45,147 nt of DNA from a virus. The stretch is taken from IMG/VR virus record IMGVR_UViG_3300010311_000419; one strand, 5' to 3'. This document shows positions 17,059 to 45,147 of the stretch, one piece after another. The notes beneath the pieces were generated by a model that saw only the letters and a list, made by a program, of their open reading frames with translations, was not told the origin of the DNA and did not search any database. The number at the start of each line of letters is the position of its first letter. Within the stretch, counting starts at the first letter, position 1. A program made the position numbers and the translations under genes.

Positions 17059-18216
17059 TTACTCTCTGGTTGCTTTCCTCCCTGCGAAATCTTCCCACCG
17101 CTTTACGATCACGTCGCAATACCCTGCATCAAGTTCCATCATGTAGCACTTGCGATTGAGCTGCTCGCAAGCGATGAGTGTTGAGCCGGAGCCGCCGAAG
17201 GGGTCAAGCACCAGCGTGTTGCTCATGGAGCTGTTCATAATGGGGTACGCCAAAAGCGGGATGGGCTTCATGGTTGGGTGATCGCCGTTTTTCTTAGGCT
17301 TGTCGAACTCCCAGATGGTGGTTTCCTTGCGTCCGCTGTACCACTGGTGCTTGCCGCTTTTCTTCCAGCCGTATAGCACAGGCTCATGCTGCCACTGATA
17401 CGGGGAGCGCCCCAGCACCAGCGACTGCTTTTTCCAGATACAGCAGCCGGACAAATAAAAACCGGCATCCGAAAAGGCTCTCCTGAAATTCAGCCCTTCG
17501 ATGTCGGAATGAAAAACATATATGCTGGCGTCGTCTGCCATGACTGCTTCGGTATTCTGGAACGCTGCCAACAGGAAGCTGTAAAAAGCATCGTTTGCCA
17601 TGTTGTCGTTCTTGATTTTCCCGGCACTGCCTTCATAGTTCACATTGTAGGGCGGGTCGGTCACGACCAGATTCGCCTTCTTGCCATCCATCAACCGCTC
17701 CACATCTTCACGCTTCGTACTATTTCCACAAAGCAAGCGGTGATCGCCAAGTATCCACAAGTCGCCGGCCTTGGTAATTGGTTCTTCCGGTGTCTCGGGC
17801 ACATCGTCCTCGTCCGTCAAACCGGTGTTCATATCCAAATCCATGCCAAAATCCGCTAAGTCAAATCCCAAAGCTTTGAGCTCCGACAACTCCCACTCGT
17901 TCGCCAACATGTCAAAATCCCAATCGCCCGCCATGCCACGTGGAGCATTATCCACAAGGATGAATCGCTTGCGTTGCTCCGCCGTTAGATTAGATGCCTT
18001 GACGATCCAACCGTCCGGGACATCTTTCATACCCAGCTCTTTGATTGCGCGATACCTCATATTGCCGCCGAGTATAATACCTTCATCATCAACAACTATT
18101 GGGCGGAGCGTCATAAACTCCGGATCACGTTTGATTGATTCGCACAATTTTTTGAACGCTTCATCCTTAATTATTCTTGGGTTCTTCGAATTAGCTTTGA
18201 TGTCGGATAAATTCAT
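17059..18216 (-). CDS. ParB-like nuclease domain fused to DNA methyltransferase (N6-A / N4-C class)
   Basis: N-terminal ParB-like segment; VTDPPYN (motif IV) and DPFGGSGST (motif I); GGAGG RBS. Confidence 0.8.
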   Translation of the reverse strand: MNLSDIKANSKNPRIIKDEAFKKLCESIKRDPEFMTLRPIVVDDEGIILGGNMRYRAIKELGMKDVPDGWIVKASNLTAEQRKRFILVDNAPRGMAGDWDFDMLANEWELSELKALGFDLADFGMDLDMNTGLTDEDDVPETPEEPITKAGDLWILGDHRLLCGNSTKREDVERLMDGKKANLVVTDPPYNVNYEGSAGKIKNDNMANDAFYSFLLAAFQNTEAVMADDASIYVFHSDIEGLNFRRAFSDAGFYLSGCCIWKKQSLVLGRSPYQWQHEPVLYGWKKSGKHQWYSGRKETTIWEFDKPKKNGDHPTMKPIPLLAYPIMNSSMSNTLVLDPFGGSGSTLIACEQLNRKCYMMELDAGYCDVIVKRWEDFAGRKATRE

Positions 18217-19651: not shown

Positions 19652-20743
19652 TCACACCTCCGTGGATCGAATCGGCATTATGTAATGCGAGGCGTTGCCA
19701 TCTTCCAACCGCATAATCTCCGCTGGCGTGCCAAGCCGTATTGTCAGATCGCTGCTTTTAACGTGTTGCGCGGATTCCAGGAAGTAGTCTGGGTTATATG
19801 CGATTTTCAACGCCGGCCCTTCAAACGCGCACGGGACAGATACGTTCATTGCGCCTTTGCCGGTAGAACGCGCGGTGAACACGAGTTCTTTGTTTGCTAC
19901 ACTCATCAACACGCTTTCCTTTGCCTCAGCGGTAACCACGCGGGCGAACTTGACAGTCTTTATCAGCGCGTCACGGTCTACGGTTACGGTTGTTTTGTGC
20001 ATTGCGCCAATCACGCGCCGATAATCTGGATATTGGAGATCGAGCTTGCGGATGATAACCTTGGTGTCCGGAGATTCTATCCCGAACGAGGTGATATTAT
20101 TGTATAACCTCACGAGCGCCGGATAGCGCTTCAGGAATGAGAGGAATATTTTCGCCCCGCCAAGTGGTATCGTGAACGCCTCGATGTCCGGGATTGGTTG
20201 CGCGGTGTCGATTGTCGCAAGCCTGAACCCGTCCGCCGTGACGAACCGGAGATGGCCGCCAACGCTTTCGAAGTGTAGCCCGTTCAACGCGCGCATCATT
20301 GGATCGGCGGCTATCGCATAGATAACGCGGTCAATCTCGCTTGAGAGTGTCGGGATGAGTTCGATCGGTTCAGCCGTTGAATCGAATATCAGCGCCGGAA
20401 AGTCTTCTGGGTCGAGCATTGGGATGTTTGCGACTCCGCCGTTGCTGTACACGTCAAGCGTCGCTTCGTTTTCTTGCTTGATGTTCAGCTGAGCGCTCGG
20501 CGCGTTTTTGGCGATCTCAAAGAGCGTCTTGGCGTCCACGGCGGTCTTGCCCGGCGATTGCGCGCTCGCCCCTTCGAGTTTGATCCGTATCGATGTTTCC
20601 ATATCCGTTGCGTACAGGTATACGGCATCACTGCATTCGATCAGCACGCTTGATAGGATCGGCTTAATCGCCTTTGCCGGCGCAACGGATACAATGTTCG
20701 TCATCGCATTTTCGAGAGTTTTCTTGTCAACTGTAAATTCCAT
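19652..20743 (-). CDS. dnaN: DNA polymerase III beta sliding clamp
   Basis: ~363 aa; NGLHFE...FVTADGFRLA-type clamp motifs; GGAGGGG RBS before ATG at 20743. Confidence 0.75.
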   Translation of the reverse strand: MEFTVDKKTLENAMTNIVSVAPAKAIKPILSSVLIECSDAVYLYATDMETSIRIKLEGASAQSPGKTAVDAKTLFEIAKNAPSAQLNIKQENEATLDVYSNGGVANIPMLDPEDFPALIFDSTAEPIELIPTLSSEIDRVIYAIAADPMMRALNGLHFESVGGHLRFVTADGFRLATIDTAQPIPDIEAFTIPLGGAKIFLSFLKRYPALVRLYNNITSFGIESPDTKVIIRKLDLQYPDYRRVIGAMHKTTVTVDRDALIKTVKFARVVTAEAKESVLMSVANKELVFTARSTGKGAMNVSVPCAFEGPALKIAYNPDYFLESAQHVKSSDLTIRLGTPAEIMRLEDGNASHYIMPIRSTEV

Positions 20744-20964
20744 AGTCCCCTCCAATGTAGTTTTCGATTTTAAGGCTGTTTTTAGCCCCTACGGGCGACG
20801 TTCGGGTTGAGTTGCGAGTGTTTTGTCACGGCGGATTTTATCGCGCGTTTTGGGGCCGTTTAACGCGTTTTGCTCTTCGTCATCCCCGGATGCCCGAAGC
20901 AACGCCGCGATAATCATGCCGATCGGCGCGCCGATGAATATGCCGATGAGGATGCCGGCGAGCA

Positions 20965-25807: not shown

Positions 25808-26026
25808 TTATTGTATTTGTGATTCGTTGCTTGAAAACGAGCGCATAAACGAGTAGAAGTCGCGCTCGGATACACCAAGGGCTTCAGCAAGTTTGATCAT
25901 TGTGTCGTGAGATGGTTTTCTAACGCCTCGTTCTAAGTGGAAGATATAGCTTTCACTAACACCGACTTTTGCGGCCAGTTCAGTTCTGGTAAGGCTTTTT
26001 TGTTTCCGTAAATCACTAAGAGTCAT
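25808..26026 (-). CDS. Cro-like HTH (XRE family) regulator
   Basis: LTRTELAAKVGVSESYIFHLERG; AAGGTGA RBS; divergent from cI-like gene. Confidence 0.7.
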   Translation of the reverse strand: MTLSDLRKQKSLTRTELAAKVGVSESYIFHLERGVRKPSHDTMIKLAEALGVSERDFYSFMRSFSSNESQIQ

Positions 26027-26131: not shown

Positions 26132-26485
26132 GTGCTAAAATTGATTGCAATGGGCTTTGAAGCTAAAACAACAGGAAAAAGAATCGCGGATATTCGAGGT
26201 AAGAATAATATTAGTCAAGAGAAGTTGGCTGAAACGCTAAGCAAGAGCGTATCCCTGATTTCTCTTTACGAGGGCGGGCATCGTGTACCACCGCCAGATG
26301 TTTTGTACCAGCTTTCAGAATTGTTTGGGGTATCTGTGGATTATTTGCTTGGCCTTACCGACAACCCAAAGCCGATCGGAGGTTTACCTCCCGACTACGC
26401 TCGTCTAAAAGCGATCGAGGTGGAATTGGAGAAGATCGACCTCGCGCGGATCATCGAGATCGAGCGGCTGATGCGGAAGTTATAG
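26132..26485 (+). CDS. CI-like HTH (XRE family) repressor
   Basis: ISQEKLAETLSKSVSLISLYEGG HTH; only plus-strand gene in the early region; may start at ATG 26150 as a leaderless mRNA. Confidence 0.65.
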   Translation: MLKLIAMGFEAKTTGKRIADIRGKNNISQEKLAETLSKSVSLISLYEGGHRVPPPDVLYQLSELFGVSVDYLLGLTDNPKPIGGLPPDYARLKAIEVELEKIDLARIIEIERLMRKL

Positions 26486-26602: not shown

Positions 26603-27340
26603 TTAAAAAAGCCTCTGCTGTCTATCTTCTCTGTCAAACCTTTGCTCAAGTTCGAATATCGTCTTGTCGCGCGTGAAAGTGTTACACCTATCATTAAAAT
26701 CGCTTCCCCACTTCAGCAGAAGTTGCCATAAATAATTATAGTTTTTCTTGAGAAGGCGCAAAGAACCAAGCCTTTGCTTGTTGCAAAACCAGCACCCACC
26801 GCGAGCCAAATCGGTATATATAGGCGACACAAGATCAAGCGATTCGCATATCGCCATCGCTTCCCGCTCGGTTATTTTATAATCAACTAATGGCGCTTTT
26901 ATGTTTCCAACAATCTTACCGTGCCTTTTTGGCTCATCGTAGGCATAGCCTATATACTGAATGCCTTTGTTGGTTTGATGTTTTTTTAAGACCTTCTGTT
27001 TTAATTCGCTTACACACCAGCTTCCTATTATGTTTGGAAACCCATACATTTTGCCTGGGTATTTACCTCTTTTTCTTATCCTGTGGTAAATTTCCTCGAA
27101 CGTATAATCAGAACTAACACGCTCGACCTCTATTCCATATCGATCCAGAATAATTTTATCCGCTTTGTTTTTGAAGTCAACCATAGGCGGTAAATCCGCT
27201 GGTATATCCTTTGTAGCCCAGATTTCCGCGTGTATGATTCTTGTTAATGGCAGTTTATTCTGATGTATAACTTCTAACATTGCAAGACTGTCTTTTCCGT
27301 AACTTATTGATGCTACATACTCCAGTAACTCGTCGACCAT
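26603..27340 (-). CDS. PAPS-reductase-like (PP-loop ATP pyrophosphatase family, DndC-like) protein
   Basis: PP-loop-like SYGKDS near N-terminus and C-terminal GGCWFC; AGGAG RBS before second ATG at 27340. Confidence 0.6.
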   Translation of the reverse strand: MVDELLEYVASISYGKDSLAMLEVIHQNKLPLTRIIHAEIWATKDIPADLPPMVDFKNKADKIILDRYGIEVERVSSDYTFEEIYHRIRKRGKYPGKMYGFPNIIGSWCVSELKQKVLKKHQTNKGIQYIGYAYDEPKRHGKIVGNIKAPLVDYKITEREAMAICESLDLVSPIYTDLARGGCWFCNKQRLGSLRLLKKNYNYLWQLLLKWGSDFNDRCNTFTRDKTIFELEQRFDREDRQQRLF

Positions 27341-27649
27341 GGTAGGGTTGCTCCTCGTCAAAAATTATCCCCGCCCGCGGGGGTGGTGCGAGCGGGGAAC
27401 CAATGTGGTGTTTTTATTTCAAGAAAAAGGGGTCGAAAAATACCCCCTGCCGGTGTCCCGCCAGCAGAGGGCAAACGGAGGTATCACGTGTAGAAAGGAG
27501 GAGTTTTATCGGGGCGTTCGTTAGTCGCAATTAGTCGCAATTGGTGGTTTCGTCATTTTTTCTAGAACCTTAACCCGCCTCGGCCAGCGTTTCAGGTTTT
27601 CTATCGCTTCCGGAGAATACTCCTCTTCGAGGGGTTTAGAATATAATAT

Positions 27650-29005
27650 TCAAATTTGTTTTTCTTCTGTTTGTATTTTTTCTGATTTTCTGTTAAAGTT
27701 TATTTTCAAAATAGAACGCTGCCAACCATCGCCGTGTTGAAGCATTAGTGCCTTTTTAGTGCTACAACTTATTTCCTTCCCATTTTTATCCCTGATATGA
27801 ACTGTTCCGGCGCTTTTCACCGCGATTGCGCGTCCGGTTATGCCTTTGACTTTTACAAAATCGCCAGTCATGAATCCTTCTTTGGTCTTGTTGCGACTGC
27901 GATGACCTCTTGCAAAGCCATGTTTGTCCGGTATAATCGTTTGTCTGTTTCCACGGCCCATTATCTTGTTTATTGTTGCGTATTGTGTTTTAACATCAAT
28001 GTGCTTATCGCACAAACCAACACAAGCAGCATCAAAATAATGTTCTTTTGGCAACCCTTGATTGTGCCTGTTGAATTTCGTTCTCCCGCCAGAAGCGAGC
28101 TCAACGTCTCCAAATTCCTCTTTGAGCTTGTTGCATAAAACCCATCGGGTTGTGTTTACGCTTGCAGCATCTTTAAGGGTCTGTTTTGCGTCCTTTATCG
28201 CCTTTTCGAAATTTGCGATCATGGTTTTGGCTTTATCGCCTTTTTGTTTTGATAAGTATTCTATATATTCTTTCGGCATCATATTGGACTTCTCTTGATT
28301 GCATTTAACGCAAGCGATTGCGAGATTATCAATGCGGTCCGTGCCGCCTTTGCTTTTCGGAATCATGTGTTCAATTTCAAGAGGAACTTTTTCAGCACCA
28401 CAATAAGCGCATTTCCTACCGTATTTTTCGAGCAAGTATTCTTTCACTTCATACCCGAATAACTTTCCATGTTGATATTCAACGCCAGACACTTCGGGGT
28501 TTGCTAACTTTTGCATATCGAACTTCACGTGTTCAACTGATACAATTTGAATAGGCGCTAATGACTTCATTTTTCTAACTAAGTTAAGAGTTGAGTATAC
28601 TCTTGAAAGCATAGAGGGTGCGAAACGCCCTTTCTTTGTGCTGTTTTTTCTATTGGCCCAACGAGCTGGTCGATACCGTGTGTTTCTGTTTCTGCGGCCA
28701 CGGCGCATTTGCGACCTGTGTTTAAGGTTATCCGCGACCGTTATTTTATGCTTCACTATTCCGGCATAACGTAAAAGTAATTTGTCTTCTTTCTCTTGAA
28801 TAACAGCGATTCCTGTTTCTTTACTTCCGGGATCAATCTTTATTTGTAATGGCTCAACCTTACAATCCTCAACTTCGTTTTTTAGGCGAATCGTAAACGG
28901 AGTGTATTTGTGTATAACTGCTTTTTTGTTTTCGAGTAACTTTCTTGCTCTCTTCTCGGAGCAAGGCATCAAAGGTTCTTTGTGTTTGTTAAGTACGAAT
29001 ACCAT
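27650..29005 (-). CDS. iscB: IscB-type RNA-guided nuclease (PLMP, RuvC-I, bridge helix, HNH, RuvC-III)
   Basis: MVFVLNKHKEPLMP start; IKIDPGSKETGIAV; RSQMRRGRRNRNTRYRPARW; CAYCGAEKVPLEIEHMIPKSKGGTDRIDNLAIACVKCNQEK; KEHYFDAACVG; ~451 aa; AAGGAG RBS. Track start at 29071 rejected. Confidence 0.8.
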   Translation of the reverse strand: MVFVLNKHKEPLMPCSEKRARKLLENKKAVIHKYTPFTIRLKNEVEDCKVEPLQIKIDPGSKETGIAVIQEKEDKLLLRYAGIVKHKITVADNLKHRSQMRRGRRNRNTRYRPARWANRKNSTKKGRFAPSMLSRVYSTLNLVRKMKSLAPIQIVSVEHVKFDMQKLANPEVSGVEYQHGKLFGYEVKEYLLEKYGRKCAYCGAEKVPLEIEHMIPKSKGGTDRIDNLAIACVKCNQEKSNMMPKEYIEYLSKQKGDKAKTMIANFEKAIKDAKQTLKDAASVNTTRWVLCNKLKEEFGDVELASGGRTKFNRHNQGLPKEHYFDAACVGLCDKHIDVKTQYATINKIMGRGNRQTIIPDKHGFARGHRSRNKTKEGFMTGDFVKVKGITGRAIAVKSAGTVHIRDKNGKEISCSTKKALMLQHGDGWQRSILKINFNRKSEKIQTEEKQI

Positions 29006-29351
29006 ACAGGTATCACTCCTTTTATTTACAGCCCGAAGGCTTGCGCTTACGCGCCTTGTAACGCGAGGCATATGCCTCGTCTCTCCTCGACAATGTTATA
29101 ATGCCTTTTTACGAGCCAATCACTTGCGTACCTTCCGTGTTTACAATCGCATGTTTAGACTGGTTCGACAGAGCAGCCGGCTGGAGAAGCACCTGCTGGT
29201 GTCATGAGCAAAATAACGTAGGTCTCTAAGACCTTAGTCTGGACCCGCTTTGTAAATAGATAAGTTACAAACCGCTACACATAAGGTAAAATTAATCCGT
29301 GATTTATGTTACAGCCAAAAAGCAGCGGGCTTGAATGGCTTAACTCAACGG
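29006..29351 (-). ncRNA. Candidate omega-RNA / tracr-like scaffold for IscB
   Basis: Non-coding ~350 nt between array and iscB; consecutive hairpins including CGAGGC-AUAU-GCCUCG, GCGC-GUAA-GCGC (GNRA) and AGCC-UUCG-GGCU (UNCG); 29256-29264 is the exact reverse complement of 9 nt of the array repeat. Boundaries approximate. Confidence 0.5.
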
Positions 29352-29516
29352 GTTGCACCTTATCTATGGTTGGGGCGGGACGTATGTTACGGCGAAGATC
29401 TTTGTATCGACGACGTGCGTTGCACCTTATCTATGGTTGGGGCGGGACAATGGTTAGGCCGTTCCTGGAGTCGATCAGGGATTTTAGTTGCACCTTATCT
29501 ATGGTTGTGGCGGGAC
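29352..29516 (-). CRISPR. Mini CRISPR-like array: three 30-bp repeats, two spacers (37 and 38 bp)
   Basis: Repeats at 29352-29381, 29419-29448, 29487-29516 (third has one mismatch); plus-strand repeat GTTGCACCTTATCTATGGTTGGGGCGGGAC; spacers GTATGTTACGGCGAAGATCTTTGTATCGACGACGTGC and AATGGTTAGGCCGTTCCTGGAGTCGATCAGGGATTTTAG. Strand inferred from iscB. Confidence 0.7.
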
Positions 29517-29866
29517 GACAAGTTATTGTATGATCCCGGCTCGAGGTTATGGCGCTCGGTGCTTGTCAGTGAGCTGGCTGAATCTAAAGAGTAAGAGTAA
29601 GTTATCGTTTGGACGTATCGATTATACCTCAAAAGCATAAAAAAGCAAGCGGCGATTATACAAGAAAAAGCGAGATATACTTAATATGTATATCCCGCCT
29701 GTGTGTAGCGTAATCAGAAGATTCGATGCGGTTATTGTTGGTTTCAATCGTAATGAGAAATCGGCTTTATTTCGCGTTAAAGGCTGAATTCAAGGGGTTT
29801 GGAAGAATTTGCCCATTAACGATACACCACGTGCCGTTTTCAGGCTTCAGGGGTTTGAAATCTTAG

Positions 29867-30454
29867 TTATTCTTTTGATCGGGCTGTAACAAAAGCAGGC
29901 GTTGAAACTTCGCACGAAACAGAACAATTATTCGCGTACCGGTAAGATGGATTTCTGCTCGAGAGATCGCGCAATGCCTTTTGTTGCTCAGATGTGAGGT
30001 GAAATAAAGTAATCATGTTTGAAATCGGGAAGTATATGATCTTGGCACCGCTAAATTCGATGGATGGATAATCTTTTTCTTGGTCTCTCACCCTTATGGA
30101 TACAGGTATTTCCAAGTTTCGCAAATAGTTGCCGTATGCCTCGCCCTTGCCTTCATCTACAAACACAAGAAATACTGGGATGTTGTACTTTTCTGATATA
30201 GTCTTGTACTGGATGTAATGTTTAAAGTCGATACCTTGATCTGGATACATTTGCCGTCTTGCCTTACTCTTCACGTCCAGAATCAGCAAATCTTTCTTGT
30301 CTGGAGATGCCAGAATCCGGTCAAACGGATGAGCACCCGGCCATACTGGTTCGTATGGGATCATTTTCTTTCTGCTTTTGATATACTCATCCACCAATAG
30401 CTCTCCAAAATCACCTTTCTTGGTTTGAATTTTCTCGCGAAAAAGTTTAATCAT
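29867..30454 (-). CDS. PD-(D/E)xK-family nuclease (restriction-endonuclease-like), putative
   Basis: GDFGELLV ... PFDRIL ... LILDVKSK matches E / D / (D/E)xK spacing; ATG at 30454 is 5 nt after the upstream stop. Confidence 0.45.
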   Translation of the reverse strand: MIKLFREKIQTKKGDFGELLVDEYIKSRKKMIPYEPVWPGAHPFDRILASPDKKDLLILDVKSKARRQMYPDQGIDFKHYIQYKTISEKYNIPVFLVFVDEGKGEAYGNYLRNLEIPVSIRVRDQEKDYPSIEFSGAKIIYFPISNMITLFHLTSEQQKALRDLSSRNPSYRYANNCSVSCEVSTPAFVTARSKE

Positions 30455-31937
30455 GACACACATCACCAAGCTTTCGCAAGAAATCGGAGCTGTACTTATC
30501 CTCCTTCTCAAATCCAATAAAATAGCGTTTACATTTTGCGGCCGCCAGTAACGTGGAACCTGAACCGGCAAACGGGTCGAGAACCACTTCACCAGAACTG
30601 CTGGAGTTTTTGATTAGATATTCCAATAAAGGCTCCGGCTTCTGGCAATCGTGAACCTTATCTTGCGGGATAGCAAACTCAAGCACGTCGGGAGAAACGG
30701 GGTTGTTCAATTTTCGTTCTTTCCCGTTTGGCATCGTGCAGAACCAGATAATCTCATACTTGGAGGCATACCGTGCTTTGAAATCACACGGCGTGTGGTT
30801 ATTCTTCACCCAAGTGAGCCAGTTATCATGTACTTCAAAGTGTTTGGAGAGGATTCTTTTGAACTCGAAAGCATTTACGCAGCCGCAAAAAACGTAGATA
30901 TGAGCGTTTTCCTTGCATACCCGTTTCAACTCAACGCACAGATCATCGAAATACTCCAAGATACCCAACGAATCATCAAACTCAGGGTTGCCAGTTCTCC
31001 GGGAGGATTTGAAATCCACCCCATAAGGCGGGTCGGTGATCACAACATCAACTTCGTTATCAGATAATGATTTGATACCTTCCAAAGCATCCACACCAAA
31101 CTTGGCCTTGTTTTTCACTCCTTCGTTGAGCTGCTTGATAACGGATTCCAACCTTTTATCGCTGTACTCACCTTTGTGAATTGCCTCGAACAACTCAGCT
31201 TTCTTCTCATCCGAGATCTCCGGAGAAAGTTGCTCTTCCATCATTTTGAGCTGGCTGCGGATGCCTTTGTAGTATTCAACCTTTTCGTCCAGTTTTTTCT
31301 TGGCAGCTTTGCATCTCTCTTCTACGCAAAACCATACCATCACTTTCATCTGGTCATCCGCTTCTAATTCATACAATCCTGACGTCCGAAACCACCCCTC
31401 GGTGAAATCGCACGTTGTAATACCGCGTTCATTTTTTGGTGCAAATGTACCAAAGTTTGGTACACGGCCCTCCTGAAAAGTTTTGGCCAAAATCAGAATC
31501 TCTGCACCAATTTTTGAACGCAATGTTACGTGATTTTTTACTTTTTCCCGGCTCCACCCAATCCGCTCGCCGATCTTCTCTTGCGTGGTCCCATCATCTT
31601 GGAGCTTTGCGATCAAATCGAGCCAATCAAACAAATCCATCGGCGAGTAGGTGTCCTCGTCTTGGTTCCCGTTTATGGCGAGGGCATAGGGATCGTGGCC
31701 TTCCTCATACACAACGCACGGGACCTTATCGATGTTTAGTTCTTTAATCACGGCAAACCGATGATTGCCGTCCGCGATCAAGAATGAACCGTTGCTCTTG
31801 ACGACCGAAAGCGGGCGAGCCGGATTATAGCCGGATTCCGTGATCCGTTTCTTTATCTTCTCCAACGTGCTCGGCCGGATATCTCGAACCGGAAATGGTT
31901 TTAATCTTGTTACTTCGATCAATTCAGTAGCGTACAT
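30447..31937 (-). CDS. ParB-like (DGQHR-like) domain fused to DNA methyltransferase; paralog of 17059..18216
   Basis: N-terminal LIADGNHRFAV; VITDPPYGV (motif IV) and LDPFAGSGST (motif I); 496 aa. Confidence 0.8.
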   Translation of the reverse strand: MYATELIEVTRLKPFPVRDIRPSTLEKIKKRITESGYNPARPLSVVKSNGSFLIADGNHRFAVIKELNIDKVPCVVYEEGHDPYALAINGNQDEDTYSPMDLFDWLDLIAKLQDDGTTQEKIGERIGWSREKVKNHVTLRSKIGAEILILAKTFQEGRVPNFGTFAPKNERGITTCDFTEGWFRTSGLYELEADDQMKVMVWFCVEERCKAAKKKLDEKVEYYKGIRSQLKMMEEQLSPEISDEKKAELFEAIHKGEYSDKRLESVIKQLNEGVKNKAKFGVDALEGIKSLSDNEVDVVITDPPYGVDFKSSRRTGNPEFDDSLGILEYFDDLCVELKRVCKENAHIYVFCGCVNAFEFKRILSKHFEVHDNWLTWVKNNHTPCDFKARYASKYEIIWFCTMPNGKERKLNNPVSPDVLEFAIPQDKVHDCQKPEPLLEYLIKNSSSSGEVVLDPFAGSGSTLLAAAKCKRYFIGFEKEDKYSSDFLRKLGDVCHD

Positions 31938-32020
31938 TAAAACACCTCACATTCAAGCGGACAAGCCGCAAAGCATATTCAAAAAGCCACATCTACAATT
32001 CAACGCCCGTCGCTCCGCGG

Positions 32021-32236
32021 TCACCTCGACAATTGTCGCCATGCCTCGTACTCCTTCCGTAGATTTTCGGAATCCCCACCGAGCTTCTCCAATGCTGCAA
32101 GCACGCGTTCTGACAGCTTGAGCTGATAACCGACCATCAGATTGTGAGCCGTTATCCCGTGAACACCGGCAATACGCGCGAACTCGATCGTGCTGATTCC
32201 TTTCTGCACGAGAAACGTTTTGATTGGATTTTCCAT
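32021..32236 (-). CDS. Small HTH DNA-binding protein
   Basis: ISTIEFARIAGVHGITAHNLMVG HTH-like; first gene of the minus-strand accessory operon. Confidence 0.5.
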   Translation of the reverse strand: MENPIKTFLVQKGISTIEFARIAGVHGITAHNLMVGYQLKLSERVLAALEKLGGDSENLRKEYEAWRQLSR

Positions 32237-32257
32237 CTTTTTGCCCCCTCACTATAA

Positions 32258-33124
32258 TTTGTAAGTATATTATATCACATAGCATCACTCAACGCAAAAG
32301 GCTACAAAACACGAACCGGCAAACCGTGGGCGCAAACATCTATCTATGAGATGCTCCATAACAAGCGCTATGCCGGAATCTATACCTACCGCGGGAAGAA
32401 GCTCGGAAACAACAGCCACGCCAAACGCACGGATACGATAGAGGTTCCCGGCGTGATCCCGCCTATCGTATCGCCCGAGACATTCGAGCGCGTCAAGGCC
32501 CGATGGCGAACCAACATCACGCGCGCGCAAACCAAACACGCGCACATCTTAACCGGGATCATCTTCTGCGGCGTATGCGGCGCGCCGATGACCCTCACGG
32601 GCGGGCGTTATCCCAAGTATCAATGCTCGCGATGGAAGAATAACCGTGATACCCAATACGTGAGCGCAGGCGCGAAGACGGCAGATAAACGCGTGATCGG
32701 ATACGTTAAGAATATCATTCTCAACGAGCCCGACTTCGAAAAGATCGCCGAGAACTATAACAAGGAACACGCGCTATCAGATATGGCGCTCAAAAGCAAG
32801 GTCGAGGCCATCACCGCGGAACTCGCCGAAGTGAACTCCGGAATCGATAACGCCGTGAGCGCGATACTCAAAGGGATACTATCTGCCAAACTTGAAGAAG
32901 AAGTGAAGCGGTTGGAACTCAGAAAGAAGAAGCTGAACGAAGACCTCTTGAACCTCTCGCAAAGCACCGGGCGGCGCATCACGACCGAAGAGGTAAGAGG
33001 CATATACACGCGCTACGAAGAGATGCTGAACAGCGACGTAACCGAGCAACGTGCTCTTGTGCTTGATCTGATCGAGCGTGTAGAGGTATTCCCGGAAGGA
33101 TTTATGAACATCGCGCCGAAATAG
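32258..33124 (+). pseudogene. Large serine recombinase (integrase), N-terminally truncated: catalytic domain absent
   Basis: Frame open from stop at 32255-32257; ..KGYKTRTGKPWAQTSIYEMLHNKRYAGIYTY.. recombinase domain, zinc ribbon IFCGVCGAPMT...KYQCS, C-terminal coiled coil; no room upstream for the ~140-aa catalytic domain. Confidence 0.55.
32269..32297 (-). promoter_or_regulatory. Candidate promoter for the accessory operon
   Basis: Minus-strand TTGCGT (32297-32292), 17 bp, TATAAT (32274-32269); GAGGGGG RBS before ATG at 32236. Confidence 0.4.
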
Positions 33125-33285
33125 CCTAATTAGGCGCTGAGATGGTGCGGAGCCCTCGGCACCAGCCAAAAGAGCATAGTTAGGCGGTTCGGTATGGTGT
33201 TCGAGGCCGAGCCGTATATCATCGTCGCGGTCCGCCGCGTGGATTGAAACCCATAATAATTTTAGTAGCGAGTTGATAACAAAAA

Positions 33286-33328
33286 AGAACCCTCCATAAC
33301 GGCCACACAAGCCATCATGGAGGGTTCT
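33286..33328. terminator. Bidirectional hairpin terminator between convergent integrase remnant and late arm
   Basis: AGAACCCTCCAT ... ATGGAGGGTTCT 12-bp stem, A-run before and T-run after. Confidence 0.55.
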
Positions 33329-33342
33329 TCTTAGATAACGGA

Positions 33343-33603
33343 TCACCTCCTTTCGGAGTTTATCTCCTTCATCCACTTATCAGCGATCTCAGGTGGGATC
33401 CCACGCTCGATCATCAAATCATACTCATTCTTATTCGTGAGCTCAGCCCACCCGGTCATCAGCTCATCAGCCGCCTTCTTGCCCGCCTCGCGAGCTTCCG
33501 GCGTGATTGTGAATCGCTCAAGAATTCTTAGCCACTGCTCGTCTTTTTGAGGCGGCAGATTGCTTATTAACAGCGTTAGAAATATCAGTAACGCCTTCTC
33601 CAA
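33343..33603 (-). CDS. Hypothetical protein; last gene of the late arm
   Basis: ORF track; overlaps upstream ORF so true start may be internal. Confidence 0.3.
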   Translation of the reverse strand: MEKALLIFLTLLISNLPPQKDEQWLRILERFTITPEAREAGKKAADELMTGWAELTNKNEYDLMIERGIPPEIADKWMKEINSERR

Positions 33604-33886
33604 CGTTTCCGGTGTTAGGCTTAGGCTCCGGCTGAAACGAAGTTTGATTCTTCATCTTATCGGCTTTATCGGTAATCTCTTTCCCAAACTCGCCTATCAC
33701 CCCCCACATCTCGTTACTGTTTGATACGCCCATCCACTTTTCGGTATGATAATCAATCTTTCCGAAAACATTTTCGAGCTTATCGCCAAACTGCTTGATC
33801 AGGTTGCGAACCCAGAGCCACAACGCCGCCCCAAAGGCTACAAACAACCCGCTGATTATAATCGGTATCCAACTCTGCCAATCCAT
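33518..33886 (-). CDS. Membrane protein with N-terminal transmembrane helix (holin or lysis-accessory candidate)
   Basis: WIPIIISGLFVAFGAALWLWV helix then hydrophilic tail. Confidence 0.4.
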   Translation of the reverse strand: MDWQSWIPIIISGLFVAFGAALWLWVRNLIKQFGDKLENVFGKIDYHTEKWMGVSNSNEMWGVIGEFGKEITDKADKMKNQTSFQPEPKPNTGNVGEGVTDISNAVNKQSAASKRRAVAKNS

Positions 33887-33972
33887 AACGCATCATCTCC
33901 TTGTTATTGTTTGCTCATTATCCAGTTTGTCATTATCCAATACAGCCCGGCTCCGATTGCCGCGCCCACTCA

Positions 33973-34524
33973 TCACCTACTCGTCGCTTGCATAGCCAGT
34001 TGGATTATCATGTAGATCAACCCGCCCGCAGCCGTTATCTGTATCAAGACCTGCCAGAACTTCCTTGCGTTCGTCACTTGCACTTCTGTCCGTCCAATAA
34101 CCACGTGCCGAAGCATCTCCATCATCTGATCCATCAGTTCCTTGTTGCTCTGCGTCGTAATTTTTTTTTGCGTCTCTTCTATCGCGTCGCGAAGCTTCTT
34201 CTGATACCCGTTGTCGAGATGTTCTCTAAGCTCTTTTATCTCTCGCTTGTTATCCTCAGAACACATCTTAAGCATTCTGATTGACTCATGTATTCCGGCA
34301 AGCTTTTCATCATTTGCCACGTCCTTCGAGTTCGCTGAAACGATATGCTCCTGTATCTCCGTAATAGTGAGTTTCACGCTTTCACTGAGTTCAGCTATCG
34401 CCTCGTTCGTCTTTGTAATAATCTCGTGGAAACCTTTATTTTGTTTTCTCTGTTCGCTAACAATCACGTCGTAGCCCGCTTTTGCCTTCAAAAACTCGCA
34501 ATTTTCCAACGTTTTTTTATCCAA
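33973..34524 (-). CDS. XhlA-like coiled-coil protein with C-terminal transmembrane helix
   Basis: Coiled-coil body, C-terminal helix VLIQITAAGGLIYMIIQLAM; GGAGG RBS; position after xkdX-like gene. Confidence 0.4.
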   Translation of the reverse strand: MDKKTLENCEFLKAKAGYDVIVSEQRKQNKGFHEIITKTNEAIAELSESVKLTITEIQEHIVSANSKDVANDEKLAGIHESIRMLKMCSEDNKREIKELREHLDNGYQKKLRDAIEETQKKITTQSNKELMDQMMEMLRHVVIGRTEVQVTNARKFWQVLIQITAAGGLIYMIIQLAMQATSR

Positions 34525-34572
34525 ATTTTCGCCTCCATTCGGCTAAACGAGCCGCTATGTGCCGTCGTTACC

Positions 34573-34719
34573 TTAATCGGGTTCCGCCTCTTGCCCCTTA
34601 GGTTGCCTTGCTGCCTGTTCCTGTTCGCCTGCCTGTTCTTGTATTTCGGTAATAATAGATTCTAAAGCGTTTATCACAGCAGCTACCTGTGCACGCTTGA
34701 GTTTAAGCATATATGTCAT
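34573..34719 (-). CDS. Hypothetical small protein (48 aa)
   Basis: Hand-called; no clear RBS. Confidence 0.2.
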   Translation of the reverse strand: MTYMLKLKRAQVAAVINALESIITEIQEQAGEQEQAARQPKGQEAEPD

Positions 34720-34743
34720 ACGCTTGATTGATAGATTCTCATT

Positions 34744-34875
34744 TTAGACCTGTGGATTTGGGTTTGTAATAAGCAATTTCTGTTCCGCAGTTATCCAACC
34801 CTTTGACACAGCAATATCCAGTTTTGCAGCATCGATTTTTCCTGCCAAATACAATCGCTTCAAACTTTCAAACAT
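34744..34875 (-). CDS. xkdX: XkdX-family small phage protein (43 aa)
   Basis: MFESLKRLYLAGKIDAAKLDIAVSKGWITAEQKLLITNPNPQV; KGWIT..EQ core resembles XkdX family; GGAGGG 6 nt before ATG. Confidence 0.5.
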   Translation of the reverse strand: MFESLKRLYLAGKIDAAKLDIAVSKGWITAEQKLLITNPNPQV

Positions 34876-34877
34876 GT

Positions 34878-35207
34878 TCATCCCTCCAGTTGAGCTAATA
34901 CTAAGGTATCTACAACTTCTGTCATAATGAGATTATCGAGTATGAGTGCATCAACGGTTTCCGTTTGGCGAACAGTATGCTCGTATAAACTATCTAATTC
35001 ATCAGCACAAGAATCAAACCCATCTATACACCCCGTATCGGGGTTGACGGTATAAATTTTCCCGTGCTCATGAATATCATCTGGCACATTGAGTAACACA
35101 CCCATCTCGTTCAACCTGCTTACCGGCATCAGAGCCATTTCACCAGTTAGCGGGTAATCGTAAGCTGTAACTATTACATTGTTTTGTATTATACAAAATT
35201 TTTTCAC
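34878..35207 (-). CDS. Hypothetical protein (109 aa)
   Basis: ORF track only. Confidence 0.35.
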   Translation of the reverse strand: MKKFCIIQNNVIVTAYDYPLTGEMALMPVSRLNEMGVLLNVPDDIHEHGKIYTVNPDTGCIDGFDSCADELDSLYEHTVRQTETVDALILDNLIMTEVVDTLVLAQLEG

Positions 35208-35220
35208 ATGACCACCTCCG

Positions 35221-36306
35221 TCAAAGTTTGTTTAGAAAAGCAGATAAAGGTGCAGTTGGATTTTTGCAAGTATAACCAGTGTTATATATCCCTATGTATC
35301 GATAATGAAGAGGTATCATCACAACTTTGCCGGATGGTGTGAGTACTCCTCCATACCATTTGCCTCCTGCCGTTGAAGTATCTGGCCCTTGTGTGTATGT
35401 GTTAGCAACTGGATCATATATCCCTATGTATTGATAGCTATAAGGTATCATCACAACCTTGCCAGATGGCGTGAGTACTCCTCCAATCCATTTGCCTCCT
35501 GCCGTTGTAGTATCTGCCCCTTGTGTGTATGTGTCCGCTACTGGATCGTATATCCCTATGTATCGATAATGAAGAGGTATCATCACAACTTTGCCGGATG
35601 GTGTGAGTACTCCTCCATACCATTTGGCTGTTGCCGTTGAAGTATCTGGCCCTTGCGTGTATGTGTTCTCAACCGGGTCATATATCCCTATGTATTGATA
35701 GCTACCAGGTACCATCACAACCTTGCCGGATGGTGTGAGTACTCCTCCAATCCATTTGCCTCCTGCCGTTGAAGTATCTGGCCCTTGTGTGTATGTGTTA
35801 GCAACTGGATCGTATATCCCTATGTATCGATAATTATGAGGTACCATCACAACCTTGCCGGATGGTGTGAGTACTCCTCCATACCATTTGGCTGTTGCCG
35901 TTGAAGTATCTGGCCCTTGCGTGTATGTGTTCTCAACTGGATCGTATATCCCTATGTATTGATAGCTACCAGGTACCATCACAACCTTGCCGGATGGTGT
36001 GAGTACTCCTCCAATCCATTTGCCTCCTGCCGTTGAAGTATCTGGCCCTTGTGTGTATGTGTTAGCAACTGGATCATATATCCCTATGTATTGATAGCTA
36101 TAAGGTATCATCACAACCTTGCCGGATGGTGTGAGTACTCCTCCATACCATTTGGATGTTGCCGTTGAAGTATCTGGCCCTTGTGTGTATCCTTGTGCGG
36201 TTGATGATAAAGCTATATTGTGTGCTATTTCATCAACAGCTTGAGCATCATAGATGCTTAGATTGTCATACCTTTCATTCAGCGAGTATTTATTCAGCTT
36301 GTACAT
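35221..36306 (-). CDS. Tandem-repeat protein, putative receptor-binding / tail fibre component
   Basis: About eight ~44-aa repeats (YTQGPDTSTAxxKWxGGVLTPSGKVVMxP..YxYIGIYDPVxNT); ATG at 36306 overlaps upstream stop as TAATG. Confidence 0.5.
   Translation of the reverse strand: MYKLNKYSLNERYDNLSIYDAQAVDEIAHNIALSSTAQGYTQGPDTSTATSKWYGGVLTPSGKVVMIPYSYQYIGIYDPVANTYTQGPDTSTAGGKWIGGVLTPSGKVVMVPGSYQYIGIYDPVENTYTQGPDTSTATAKWYGGVLTPSGKVVMVPHNYRYIGIYDPVANTYTQGPDTSTAGGKWIGGVLTPSGKVVMVPGSYQYIGIYDPVENTYTQGPDTSTATAKWYGGVLTPSGKVVMIPLHYRYIGIYDPVADTYTQGADTTTAGGKWIGGVLTPSGKVVMIPYSYQYIGIYDPVANTYTQGPDTSTAGGKWYGGVLTPSGKVVMIPLHYRYIGIYNTGYTCKNPTAPLSAFLNKL
35270..36190. repeat. Near-identical 132-bp tandem DNA repeats (alternating variants, ~264-bp higher-order unit)
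   Basis: Stretches such as 35280-35350 and 35550-35620 are identical; limits approximate. Confidence 0.7.
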
Positions 36307-36644
36307 TATATAGTGACCTCTTTCCCGCTTATCATCACATATACTTTGCTGGCAGTCTCGCAATACCCTTTAATCCTATCTCCGGCAATTAAAACTTGAT
36401 CCATAAACGGAATCGTTATAGTGTTTTCTCCGCCTACTGCAGGTAGCGGATAATCCTTCACCAGATAATAGTCTGTACTCCCACTGTAAATAACAAGAGA
36501 TACTTTTTTAGCTGCTGTGTCTATGTTGCAGAACGTGACCGCCTTTATGAACCTCAACTTGCCAGAAGGCACTGCGTCTGCATCGATATATCCCAATGTG
36601 TCTGGTAAAAAACCTATCGCGAATCGTTTTGCATCCGTTGCCAC
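36306..36644 (-). CDS. Hypothetical tail-fibre-region protein (112 aa)
   Basis: ORF track; coupled to downstream repeat protein. Confidence 0.4.
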   Translation of the reverse strand: MATDAKRFAIGFLPDTLGYIDADAVPSGKLRFIKAVTFCNIDTAAKKVSLVIYSGSTDYYLVKDYPLPAVGGENTITIPFMDQVLIAGDRIKGYCETASKVYVMISGKEVTI

Positions 36645-40129: not shown

Positions 40130-42688
40130 TTATTGTATGAGCGGCGCTTCGAATAATGCACTGCTCCCAAGCATATCGTCAACCGCATACCATTTGATCC
40201 ACGCCTTGCCTGCATATCCGTCGAACGAAGGAATATAGAAATCTCCCGGTTCGTCGTCCTCGTCGAAATCAGTAAGCATCAACTTTCCGATGTTGCCGTC
40301 ATAAATGTAGTATCCTTCGGATAAGCTTGCGTATATCTTGTTGTTTGCGAAAATTGGCATATTGCCGTATGTTCTCCAGTCTATTGCGTATATTTTAGAG
40401 AAAGCCGGAGAATAATCAATGATTGCTGGGGGGATGGATGAGCTTGAAAGATAAGTACACATCAACGTTTTTTTGCGTTCGATCGTATCGATGTTTATTA
40501 ACCTTATGAAGTTTGTGTTTGAAAAATCGCCGCTTGTAAATAGCATTATTCGGTCGAAGGGTACGGAAGTATCCGGCGCCAATAAAGCATAAGAGTTATC
40601 GGGAGCAACATATATATGGGGCGTAGAATCATAACTTGTTCTGCCGGTTGAGATAAACGCGCGCGTATCAATATTGAGGAATCCAAGCGTGTGTGTCTCT
40701 TCACCTTCGCCGTTTCGCCCGTTTTTAGCTACGAGTAAATAAGTCTGCCCGCCTACGCTGATAAATGGAAGCGGATCATGCCAATCGGAATAAAAACACT
40801 GATAAGGGCTTACACTAGTTGCTCCCCATCCATATTTGTATAATCCGATTCGTTTTACTTCCATCAATGTATAATCGATGTCTTGATAATAGGTTGTTTC
40901 GCCATCGATGGTTTTGTATCCAGTTGCACTAATTATGTTAGATTTGTCAAATGTGTTTAAGTAATATGCTGTTTCTTCAATTATAATATCTAATTCATCC
41001 CTTGTAAACTCGAATCTTCTTACTTCTCTAAACATTCTATTTAATGATTCTTTGGCAGGCGCATTATAGAAAAGTTCTGTTTTCAAAGAGGCTGTAAATG
41101 TAAGTTGTTCGGGTGGTTCGGGTGATTCGTCCCCGTGTGAACACGTTCGTATGTTTGCGCCGCCCATACCCCCAACACCCAATTGTCCATCTTCGGCGTA
41201 TATATAACCACAAACGCGAGGCGGCAAAGCGCCTTTTGTACCGCCAGCGCTTTGCGTTCCGCCAGAACCGCCATAGCCGCTGTGGAAATTGTTTAAGGCT
41301 TGATCGTTTTCGCCATGACTCCCGGTATAACCGCCATCGCCTCCATGTGGTGGGTGTGTTGATTTATACAACGGCCGTACGTCTCCTTTAGGTGCTAAAC
41401 CCGTTGTGCTTCTTGATTGTGGCGCGCCGGCACCGCCGCCGCCACCGGCGACTAACATTCTGTTTTCTAATTCTGTACCACCTATTCTTATGTCTGATGC
41501 TCCGCCGCCGGTCCCACCGGATGAGTATTTTGAGAACCCTGTAATACCCGCACCACCAATATAAATATAAACCGTAGTTGTTTCTGATAAAGATAAAGTT
41601 GCGCTGACATAAGCGCCTTTCCCGCCGGAGCCTTTTAATCCTAAATAATGCCCCGGCGTGTTTTCGTCATAACTGCTATCACCGCCAGAAGCCCCCCACG
41701 CCTCAACAGAGTAATTCCCTGCCGGCAACTCAACGCTTGAATCGTTTATATAAGTAACGCCATTTAATACAACTTTGCCGTTTCCGGTGTTGATTCCAGT
41801 TTCATAATGTGCATTCGATAAGGATGCGTGTACATAAGACGAACCACCACCACCACCGCCACCACCGCCGCCACAACAAGCCCCGGAACCGCCAGCACCG
41901 CCGCCACCGCCGTAGTAACCGCCACCACCACCACCGCCACCGCTGCATCCAACATAAAAACCATATGTAGTATTAACTAATCCACCGCCGTTAGCCGAAA
42001 AAGCAGGTGGAAGTTCTGGAAGTTCTTCTGTAAGCCCATCATAATATAAAGGATTATATAATATTTCTCTGGCTTCCGTTTCATCGTTTGTGTCAACATC
42101 CTCCGGCCAGCCATCATAATGCTCGGAATCATATATCTCTTCATTTATAAGTGTCTGCGTACCGCTTGATAACGCAACTTTTACCCACTTATGCGTATTG
42201 TCTGATAGTTTAAGCAAAATATACATATATTTTCTGTTTGTTGAATAGTAAAACGCGCGTGTAGATGCTGTCTCGGTTGCGAGATTAGTGGCATACACAA
42301 AAGCGCCACCAACATCATCAAACTCTGTTAATCCGATCGGCGTGTGTATTGCTACACCTTCATCGTCAACAGAAGAATTGATGATGTACCATTTTTGATC
42401 AGCATCTTGCACTATTGAATAGCAACGTTGAATTTTTCTATCATAGATAAACGGTAGATAATCATAAATGTTAAGCCCAGAACCGGCTATAATATTTGTA
42501 TCAAAAACTTTCGCCAACGCCGCAGTCTGCGTTTCTTCGTTTAGTTCTACGGATACGATGTTATAATCGCTACCGTAGTTAGCAGCACACACAATCCCTT
42601 TCAACTCTTCGAACGTGATCCGCTCTTCGAACGTGATCCGCCCGTTCATCACGGGAAGAAACCCGAACATCTTCGCGCTTATGCTCAT
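40130..42688 (-). CDS. Glycine-rich tail-associated protein (852 aa)
   Basis: Central poly-Gly tracts (CSGGGGGGGGYYGGGGGAGGSG..GGGGGGGGGG) within beta-rich flanks. Confidence 0.5.
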   Translation of the reverse strand: MSISAKMFGFLPVMNGRITFEERITFEELKGIVCAANYGSDYNIVSVELNEETQTAALAKVFDTNIIAGSGLNIYDYLPFIYDRKIQRCYSIVQDADQKWYIINSSVDDEGVAIHTPIGLTEFDDVGGAFVYATNLATETASTRAFYYSTNRKYMYILLKLSDNTHKWVKVALSSGTQTLINEEIYDSEHYDGWPEDVDTNDETEAREILYNPLYYDGLTEELPELPPAFSANGGGLVNTTYGFYVGCSGGGGGGGGYYGGGGGAGGSGACCGGGGGGGGGGSSYVHASLSNAHYETGINTGNGKVVLNGVTYINDSSVELPAGNYSVEAWGASGGDSSYDENTPGHYLGLKGSGGKGAYVSATLSLSETTTVYIYIGGAGITGFSKYSSGGTGGGASDIRIGGTELENRMLVAGGGGGAGAPQSRSTTGLAPKGDVRPLYKSTHPPHGGDGGYTGSHGENDQALNNFHSGYGGSGGTQSAGGTKGALPPRVCGYIYAEDGQLGVGGMGGANIRTCSHGDESPEPPEQLTFTASLKTELFYNAPAKESLNRMFREVRRFEFTRDELDIIIEETAYYLNTFDKSNIISATGYKTIDGETTYYQDIDYTLMEVKRIGLYKYGWGATSVSPYQCFYSDWHDPLPFISVGGQTYLLVAKNGRNGEGEETHTLGFLNIDTRAFISTGRTSYDSTPHIYVAPDNSYALLAPDTSVPFDRIMLFTSGDFSNTNFIRLINIDTIERKKTLMCTYLSSSSIPPAIIDYSPAFSKIYAIDWRTYGNMPIFANNKIYASLSEGYYIYDGNIGKLMLTDFDEDDEPGDFYIPSFDGYAGKAWIKWYAVDDMLGSSALFEAPLIQ
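41830..41960. repeat. Low-complexity GGN/GCC codon tract encoding poly-Gly
   Basis: Runs of ACCACCACCGCCACCGCC on the plus strand. Confidence 0.7.
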
Positions 42689-44959: not shown

Positions 44960-45147
44960 TCACCCCTTCTTCTCCGTAACGAGGACAGTCACATTCACAA
45001 CGCGGCCGTCCAGAGCGTTAAGTTTCGCGTTAATTGCGTCGATCTGTTCTTTAGCTGATGAGCTGACCGCCGAGAAAGTGCTTTTAGCGTTCGTTTCAAA
45101 CTGTCCGAAGGTCTTCTCGTTCACTTGCCCAATCTCGGTGTTGATAA
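44960..45147 (-). CDS. 3' end of the junction-spanning repeat protein (same gene as 1..1546)
   Basis: Hand translation continues in frame from base 1 through 45066 to a TGA at 44960-44962, five bases upstream of the next ATG at 44955. Confidence 0.45.
   Translation of the reverse strand, partial: INTEIGQVNEKTFGQFETNAKSTFSAVSSSAKEQIDAINAKLNALDGRVVNVTVLVTEKKG
45067..45147. repeat. Second copy of the 81-bp terminal direct repeat
   Basis: Exact match to 1..81. Confidence 0.9.

Follow-up and report, generated by a model that had tools for sequence, protein, structure and literature searches.

A truncated serine integrase gene as the probable relic of a lysogeny-module deletion in an uncultured tailed phage

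Phage D29 is a lytic deletion derivative of a temperate, L5-like parent and differs from it by a deletion of about 3.6 kb with one end-point inside the repressor gene; Kerberos, Pomar16 and StarStuff are its temperate relatives (PMC5712189). TM4, a Cluster K mycobacteriophage, lost its integration cassette (PMC3203893), and Streptococcus thermophilus phage TP-778L, which is propagated lytically, carries only a truncated integrase gene (PMC3952083). Here we analyse a related case in a viral DNA stretch of 45,147 nt (IMG/VR record IMGVR_UViG_3300010311_000419; the whole stretch is called the window below), in which the gene for a large serine integrase is represented by its 3' part (32282-33124, + strand). 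This part is very probably an integrase pseudogene left behind when the lysogeny module was deleted from an otherwise complete phage. In dairy phages, virulent types close to temperate ones (such as virulent Sfi19 and temperate Sfi21) are reportedly also explained by deletions in the lysogeny module, according to papers of the Brussow group.

The reading frame in question (32258-33124, + strand) is open straight after a TAA at 32255-32257 and is closed by a TAG at 33122-33124. Pfam detects in it the Recombinase domain PF07508 (E 4.9e-17) and the zinc ribbon PF13408 (Zn_ribbon_recom, E 6.2e-08) with no match to the Resolvase domain PF00239, and PHROGs assigns it to the integrase family phrog_95 (E 5.8e-43). 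The PF07508 match spans positions 26-101 of the 102 in the profile, so this domain is truncated on its N-terminal side. Intact homologs were found by searching a large protein collection; P0001 and P0002 are both 483 amino acids (aa) long and contain PF00239, PF07508 and PF13408. The remnant aligns with residues 203-483 of P0001 (95% aa identity, 98% of query, E 2.4e-174) and is 89% identical to P0002, likewise over 98% of query. In the alignment with intact integrases the zinc-ribbon cysteines C299, C302 and C318 are invariant, and the C-terminal region, heptad-like by eye, aligns end to end.

The remnant thus consists of codons 204-483 and the stop codon; of the recombinase domain it retains the C-terminal three quarters, in addition to a zinc ribbon and the coiled-coil/C-terminal region. 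An earlier description of this frame, made from the letters alone (the sequence-only reading), had recognised the C-terminal domains of a large serine recombinase, and in this it is right; it had placed the beginning of the integrase at 32258, whereas integrase DNA begins at 32278-32282. The loss is also larger than the catalytic domain of about 140 aa that it supposed. Gone are about 203 residues, which make up the catalytic domain in full, the linker and the initial quarter of the recombinase domain. The nucleophilic serine, S12 within the YARVSSDKQ motif of P0001, belongs to the segment gone from the window. Because the N-terminal catalytic domain with this nucleophile is absent, the product cannot cut or rejoin DNA.

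The longest open reading frame (ORF) within the remnant (32351-33124, + strand, 257 aa) starts with an ATG at 32351, equivalent to M227 of the intact protein, and is annotated by gene callers as 'Recombinase, Zn_ribbon_recom'. There is no start codon between 32258 and 32351, and when the sequence was read directly, no GGAGG-like motif or evident Shine-Dalgarno sequence was seen before the ATG. Translation from M227, the sole start codon, would drop about half of the recombinase domain. With neither the nucleophilic serine nor a good translation start, the remnant would have no plausible recombinase activity.

We wondered if the missing part is located elsewhere in the genome. The two ends share an exact direct repeat of 81 bp (1-81 and 45067-45147), and the window thus represents a closed circular (or concatemer-derived) assembly with nothing hidden beyond its ends; the unique genome length, without the terminal repeat, is about 45,066 bp. 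Using four integrases as queries (P0001, P0002, P0003, P0005), tblastn retrieved no match to residues 1-202 at E<=10 in the whole window. A hidden Markov model built from four catalytic domains gave a best E of only 1.2 against the six-frame translation. Nor did Pfam analysis of 49 ORFs, including all of at least 200 aa, reveal any tyrosine integrase, second serine recombinase, transposase or ParA; the two ParB_N domains in the genome are fused to DNA methyltransferases. The earlier claim that the genome lacks a functional integrase is thus borne out, residues 1-202/203 being absent from every frame of the circular genome. Two explanations had been offered for this lack, a decaying temperate lineage or dependence on another recombinase. 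The former agrees with our results, whereas for the latter no other integrase or transposase is encoded.

In other respects the genome, which is read almost wholly on the minus strand, contains a complete set of tailed-phage genes. Pfam and PHROGs identify terminase, Mu-type portal, MuF, protease/scaffold, E-type capsid, tail tube and tape measure among head and tail genes, and replication initiator, SSB, beta-clamp, RecT/YqaJ and RusA among those of replication and recombination. No endolysin was recognised in the Pfam/PHROG annotation of window ORFs.

An assembly error, an intron or a split gene with its N-terminal part elsewhere in the genome might also produce a truncated frame, and the abrupt onset of homology is the one observation that speaks for such an explanation. 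Its likelihood is practically negligible. Window positions 31000-35000 are 100% identical in JGI 3300025629, JGI 3300009714 and ENA ERZ795047, and the same gene layout is present in Logan SRR4236670; among the relatives fetched for comparison, contigs L008, L009 and L010 contain the junction at 100% identity and L028 the same layout. The junction, found in four independent metagenome assemblies (JGI, ENA, Logan) from different pipelines, is real and not an artefact. Moreover, the DNA upstream of the remnant is an opposite-strand gene with its promoter, which contradicts an intron or a split gene, as does the lack of any catalytic-domain signal in the closed circular genome.

The ancestral arrangement is visible in intact relatives. 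Six contigs encoding P0001 (L002-L007) consist of a leftward cro-like helix-turn-helix (HTH) gene (75 aa), a rightward cI gene with HTH and peptidase S24 domains (259 aa), three small ORFs, int and a 122-aa gene, which is also the right-hand neighbour in the window. The same layout of cro, cI(S24) and int occurs in a lineage with 42% integrase identity (two NCBI metagenome-assembled genomes, MAGs). DNA similarity between the window and L002-L007 starts abruptly at 32278 and extends at about 90% identity into the downstream genes. The left side is matched by L024, which contains the 71-aa gene of the window in identical form (the cro-position gene, 32021-32236, - strand, with which the leftward early operon opens), the same intergenic sequence, which here runs on beyond the break of the window, and, divergent from the 71-aa gene, an intact HTH+S24 repressor of 228/233 aa. 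In L038, this intergenic region and repressor precede a 159-aa zinc-ribbon/membrane ORF, after which comes an int N-terminus with 99% identity to P0001.

On L038, window positions 32036-32281 correspond to 1679-1924 and positions 32288-32398 to 4090-4200. The flanks of the junction therefore map to 1924 and 4084/4090, both collinear, as in a simple novel joint. At this joint (32278-32282) the cro-cI intergenic region meets int codon 204. With a slash marking the break, the window reads ...TATATCACATA/GCATCACTC... (GCATCAC directly after the break), the left parent ...TATATCACATA/AACTTATGAGG... (in L024 ...CACATA/CACTTATAAGG...) and the right parent ...GGTGAGATTATC/GCCACGCTC... (in L002 ...GAGATCATC/GCATCACTC...). 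Microhomology at the joint is imperfect only (3/4 bp, CATA vs CATC). Compared to an L038-like parent, about 2.16 kb is absent; the gap begins 45 bp upstream of the cro-position gene, ends with integrase codon 203 and comprises about 80 bp of intergenic DNA, cI, the 159-aa ORF and int codons 1-203. The retained ancestral DNA (32237-32281, 45 of the ~125 bp between the cro-position gene and cI) shows no difference from L024 2804-2848 or, as far as the break, from seven other alleles. The truncation is thus a deletion by illegitimate recombination, not an insertion.

According to the sequence-only reading, an accessory island might have replaced the 5' end of the integrase gene. Such an island would comprise the HTH gene, the ParB-methyltransferase, the 241-aa ORF and the HNH gene, inserted so as to overwrite the 5' part. 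It is true that 27517-32277 is devoid of nucleotide similarity to intact L002-L007 and that the left-hand proteins are at most 30% identical to their positional counterparts there. However, the same left-hand genes adjoin intact cI in L024, the DNA up to 32281 is the native cro-cI spacer (L024, L038, seven other alleles), and the left-hand genes are co-directional with the rest of the early operon and lead into it. The dissimilarity to L002 is explained by a different immunity/early-module allele and not by insertion at the junction. L024 and L038 point to loss with nothing inserted, and we consider replacement by an island extremely unlikely.

In the leftward early operon, the cro-position gene is followed by a ParB_N::N6/N4 methyltransferase gene (30447-31937, - strand, 496 aa), the 241-aa ORF and the RRXRR-HNH gene; the operon sits where the cro-led operon stands in intact relatives. 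The positional counterpart of the 71-aa gene in L002 encodes a 75-aa HTH_3 protein. For the 71-aa protein itself there is no Pfam match even at E<=5 and no PHROG match. The opposite-strand gene noticed earlier is thus present, but its label as an HTH gene stays positional and by eye.

The sequence TTGCGT-N17-TATAAT, described earlier as promoter of an accessory operon, is indeed found on the - strand (32269-32297; -35-like hexamer 32297-32292, -10 hexamer 32274-32269), but it would represent the present form of the phage's own early (cro) promoter. Its -10 falls in the 45 bp that were retained and has the same sequence in every allele as well as in intact L024 and L038, which suggests that it derives from the ancestral early promoter. 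This -10 is of extended type (TGATATAAT at 32277-32269, - strand), with TG one base upstream of it. Since the junction is located seven bases upstream of the -10, TTGCGT corresponds to integrase codons read in reverse complement (...AACGCAA...); in the ancestral sequence the hexamer here is ATAAAC. The site is absent from a consensus promoter scan because TTGCGT matches only 3/6 consensus positions, and the new -35 is not required, as sister alleles retain the old one. The early promoter might have survived because its extended -10 falls just inside the retained 45 bp, TTGCGT being a by-product of the joint.

A rightward promoter-like site (32230-32258, + strand, TTTCCA-17-TATAAT, 10/12) overlaps the start of the cro-position gene and contains the frame-closing TAA. 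Every allele keeps its sequence, as do L024/L038. The site may have served in the ancestor as promoter towards cI; it now faces the remnant, so that transcription of the stump is possible. In the intact intergenic region we further found three ATATCAC/GTGATAT-type motifs, including the palindrome TATCAAATATATGATA; the inverted-repeat motifs there read ATTATATCAC / GTGATATAAT and TATCAAATATATGATA. The motifs are candidate operators, of which the window keeps one of three (ATATCAC in 32237-32281).

A second divergent HTH pair is encoded at 25808-26026 (- strand, 72 aa) and 26132-26485 (+ strand, 117 aa), with matches to Pfam HTH_3/HTH_19 and to regulator/repressor families of PHROGs. A 126-aa HTH protein encoded by intact relative L002 shares 54% identity with the 117-aa protein. 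Since intact relatives carry a counterpart of at least the 117-aa member, this pair is not the module's own repressor. It is probably the 'cI/cro switch' that the genome was earlier said to keep. That statement holds for the second pair, whereas the LexA-like cI (HTH + S24) and two of the three operator-like motifs have been deleted.

We then compared the junction with the same locus in other relatives, and these form a series of deletion alleles. In L015, ...CACTTATAA is joined to int codon ~166, leaving a 298-aa ORF. Its remaining 840 bp of int are identical to those of the window, so a further loss of about 120 bp could have turned an L015-type genome into that of the window. L011, L017 and L036 have ...TATCAAATA joined to the last 26 bp of int. 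L013 shares the left end-point of the L011 group, its right end lying beyond int at window position 33184. In L022, cI codon ~107 is joined to window position ~33240 via 7-bp microhomology (GCCGCGT), and in L023 the break is at cI codons 7-8. Finally, P0004 (L018 825-1472, L019) and P0006 (L020 6001-6636, L021) are in-frame fusions of cI HTH with the int C-terminus. They represent two different break points in two other immunity types, each found in two sequencing runs. In P0006 the full HTH and the linker are preserved as far as the beginning of the S24 domain, and from there the integrase coiled-coil region takes over; the product might conceivably act as an uncleavable DNA-binding protein.

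Taken together, at least eight distinct junctions exist at the locus (the window's and at least seven others in relatives), probably resulting from at least six primary deletion events. All of them remove the S24 part of the repressor and all or part of int. The 71-aa gene is listed in 163 blocks of the collection's index, and in none of the ten places shown is an intact module found beside it.

BLAST gave a fixed left boundary at 32281, which would be expected of site-specific recombination. This was rejected, as left end-points differ at base level. Numbered from the C of CAT, the reverse complement of the ATG of the cro-position gene, they lie at 48, 57, 94, 94 (L023, within cI codons 7-8) and 448. 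Such positions are consistent with selection to keep the early promoter. The common left end-point of the L011 group and L013 is at the exact centre of the palindrome TATCAAATA/TATGATA, which belongs to the ancestral intergenic region (L024 2886-2901) and is deleted in the window. Either this palindrome would be a break hot spot, or L013 would have arisen from an L011-type genome by a second deletion.

Three further alleles (L012, L014, L016) are of L011 type and carry in addition a block of about 2.9 kb with eight small co-directional genes, one of which contains a STIV_B116-like domain, between window positions 33165 and 33278 (L012 1335-4136, L014 1739-4356, L016 1364-3981). At the same place, L034/L035 contain a different gene of 460 aa. 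The emptied lysogeny locus acts as a hot spot for cargo.

From these comparisons we propose the following course of events. In the ancestor, the lysogeny module would have been situated between the end of the late operon and the start of the early operon. Read rightwards, it would have consisted of the LexA-like cI, a small ORF, the gene for the large serine integrase of 483 aa and, after it, a probable attP. About 2.16 kb would then have been lost in a single illegitimate deletion, bringing int codon 204 next to a position 45 bp upstream of the cro-position gene; alternatively, the loss would have taken two steps via an L015-like intermediate. The deletion would have taken away cI together with its promoter-proximal operator-like sites, as well as the small ORF and the half of the integrase that is catalytic. 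Selection would have acted on the loss of cI, with int lost as collateral damage. The resulting genome, otherwise complete, would circulate as such and most likely grow lytically only.

Several observations weigh against this scenario. Decay of the remnant is not visible: its 843 bp contain no stop and no frameshift, and the ratio of nonsynonymous to synonymous substitution rates (dN/dS) is 0.12 between the remnant and intact genes, as compared to 0.10 among intact genes over the same part. An intact frame and a low dN/dS would be compatible with retention of the stump for a reason. Since the ratio is no higher than that of intact genes, the deletion may equally be recent, and we consider dN/dS uninformative as a guide to evolution after the deletion. 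Further, no intact int was seen on one contig with the exact 71-aa allele, as L024 ends just after cI and the left gene of L038 is a 76-aa variant. Lastly, the repressor-like gene at 26132-26485 could still give immunity or a carrier state.

The same observations led us to consider whether the 257-aa protein is made and retained, for example to bind att sites and thereby hinder integrases of co-infecting temperate relatives. Besides the intact frame over 843 bp and its dN/dS of 0.12, the rightward promoter-like site facing the remnant and the in-frame cI-HTH::int-C-terminus fusions of two relatives would fit this function. We nevertheless think it very unlikely. Sister alleles that lack all or nearly all of int (L011, L013, L017, L012/14/16, L022, L023, L036) are at least as common, and translation from the sole start codon, which no visible ribosome-binding site precedes, would leave out half of the recombinase domain. 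As the remnant is identical to that of L015, there was also no time for selection to be tested. In a broader version of this idea, DNA-binding/coiled-coil fragments of the integrase would be repeatedly kept and expressed, alone (window, L015) or fused to an HTH (P0004, P0006), as dead att-site binders or uncleavable chimeric repressors. This is a long shot; if true, such fragments would interfere with integration or immunity of co-circulating temperate relatives. The pseudogene thus remains our preferred interpretation of the remnant.

Downstream of the remnant, the region 33125-33340 had been singled out earlier as a possible location of an attP-like sequence, and one candidate is indeed present there. 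It is a conserved 22-bp imperfect palindrome (I3, 33143-33164), TGGTGCGGAG-CC-CTCGGCACCA, which starts 19 bp after the int stop and forms a 9/10 inverted repeat around non-palindromic CC. Exactly the same sequence is found directly 3' of int in 22 fetched loci. These include L034/L035, where the integrase is 89% identical and the flanks of the palindrome diverge; in L020/L021 (P0006 lineage) it is conserved at 21/22 positions. Since no T-run follows it on either strand, the palindrome is not an intrinsic terminator. Cores of serine-integrase attP sites generally have a position, size and symmetry of this kind. We therefore propose 33143-33164 as a candidate attP core that the window would have retained.

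Two other elements were rejected as parts of an att site. The left arm of inverted repeat I2 (33124-33138 / 33171-33185) is not conserved in L002 or L034, and for this reason only the I3 core is proposed. A GGTTCGAGG-like string near 33205 was considered as tRNA-derived att site, and ARAGORN found no tRNA in the window. Further downstream, a strong stem-loop terminator (33277-33337, - strand as read) marks the end of the leftward late operon and the right bound of the former lysogeny module.

With a candidate attP core and the 117-aa repressor-like gene both retained, the phage might still be temperate in practice, integrating by means of an integrase supplied in trans by a co-infecting or resident relative. 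Intact and deleted relatives do occur in neighbouring ENA accessions (ERZ795066, ERZ795047), whose numbers suggest a common study series. On the other hand, the S24 repressor of the module and most operator-like sites are gone, and 185,579 reference genomes yielded no relative in integrated form; the sole match there was a short phage-type contig. Integration in trans seems improbable to us. The genome is best read as a lysogeny-defective derivative of a temperate phage. Growth by the lytic route alone seems likely, with some doubt left by the second divergent HTH pair.

The search of the 185,579 reference genomes was performed with back-translated P0001 and yielded no relative and no integrated prophage from which attL/attR could be derived. 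An exact-pattern scan of genomes with the right half of the candidate attP gave one match, in a 3.6-kb contig binned in MAG 'Thermotogae bacterium ADurb.Bin062'. It was discarded as a host junction, being a phage contig of L011 type instead. Megablast of window positions 31000-34500 against 50,697 GenBank phage records gave no match, hence the phage has no cultured close relative. Among GenBank phages, the integrase closest to that of the window is named 'resolvase' and belongs to Marinitoga camini virus 1 (36% identity, 97% of query). The MAG bin and the similarity to the Marinitoga virus are a weak but consistent hint at a host in Thermotogota. In viral contigs, a pattern of the cI S24 region gave no match and the cI protein search recovered only the truncated L022 allele.

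Several other genes of the window deserve mention. Two glycosyltransferase genes (10192-12360 and 12366-13271, - strand) encode a 722-aa protein with GT2 and GT1 domains and a 301-aa GT2 protein, respectively. They are located between MuF/portal and protease/capsid genes, and this unusual place within the head-morphogenesis block hints at virion glycosylation. There are two separate ParB_N::N6/N4 methyltransferase fusion genes, one at the start of the early operon (30447-31937) and the other just upstream of the terminase gene (17059-18216, - strand). A 380-aa protein (35221-36363, - strand) consists of about seven tandem repeats of ~44 aa (...YTQGPDTSTA..KW.GGVLTPSGKVVM.P..Y.YIGIYDP...) with weak Kelch-like matches. 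Its versions in relatives are 319, 336 and 363 aa long, which indicates that the number of repeats varies; it is probably a receptor-binding or fibre protein. A protein of the tail region (40130-42688, - strand, 852 aa) contains the ALK/LTK glycine-rich domain PF12810 (E 6.5e-24). The early region also includes a PAPS-reductase-like gene (26603-27361, - strand, phrog_424) and the gene for a 473-aa RRXRR + HNH nuclease (27650-29071, - strand), and a full-length DNA polymerase III beta-clamp gene (19652-20755, - strand) is present among the replication genes.

The state of the integrase gene matters for annotation. As gene callers label 32351-33124 'recombinase', a lifestyle predictor may call this phage temperate; given the dead gene and the missing repressor, it should be scored as lysogeny-defective. 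What deserves most attention is that nested and independent deletion alleles form a natural series at a single locus, with one intact arrangement and at least eight deletion junctions in several immunity types, from many metagenomes of anaerobic-digester type. The series documents, at sequence resolution, how members of an uncultured phage group (possibly of Thermotogota) repeatedly went from temperate to lytic, and could be used to measure the frequency and junction chemistry of lysogeny loss in the wild. In addition, the search for the attP of this integrase is narrowed to one small conserved candidate.

How does this locus compare with the systems described so far? As in D29, a deletion that reaches the repressor gene has left a complete genome. 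In the window the whole repressor gene is gone, and in sister alleles L022, L023, P0004 and P0006 the deletion ends inside it. In contrast to D29, which keeps its integrase, the other end-point in the window lies inside the integrase gene; host and phage lineage are unrelated, and the present case is known from sequence. TM4 completely lost its tyrosine integrase along with attP, whereas the window keeps a 280-codon stump of a serine integrase and a candidate attP, and, unlike TM4, it lost repressor and integrase in what appears to be one event. Like TP-778L, the window carries only a truncated integrase gene. The truncation in TP-778L came about by aberrant excision between two integrase copies, that of the window by internal deletion, and the integrases of the Streptococcus thermophilus phages TP-778L and Sfi21/Sfi19 are of the tyrosine type. 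With large serine recombinases of Bxb1 / phiC31 / A118 type, the remnant aligns throughout its recombinase domain, zinc ribbon and C-terminal region, differing from them by the absence of the catalytic domain. Deletion within the lysogeny module is a well-known and ordinary route from temperate to lytic phages, and the window is another case of it.

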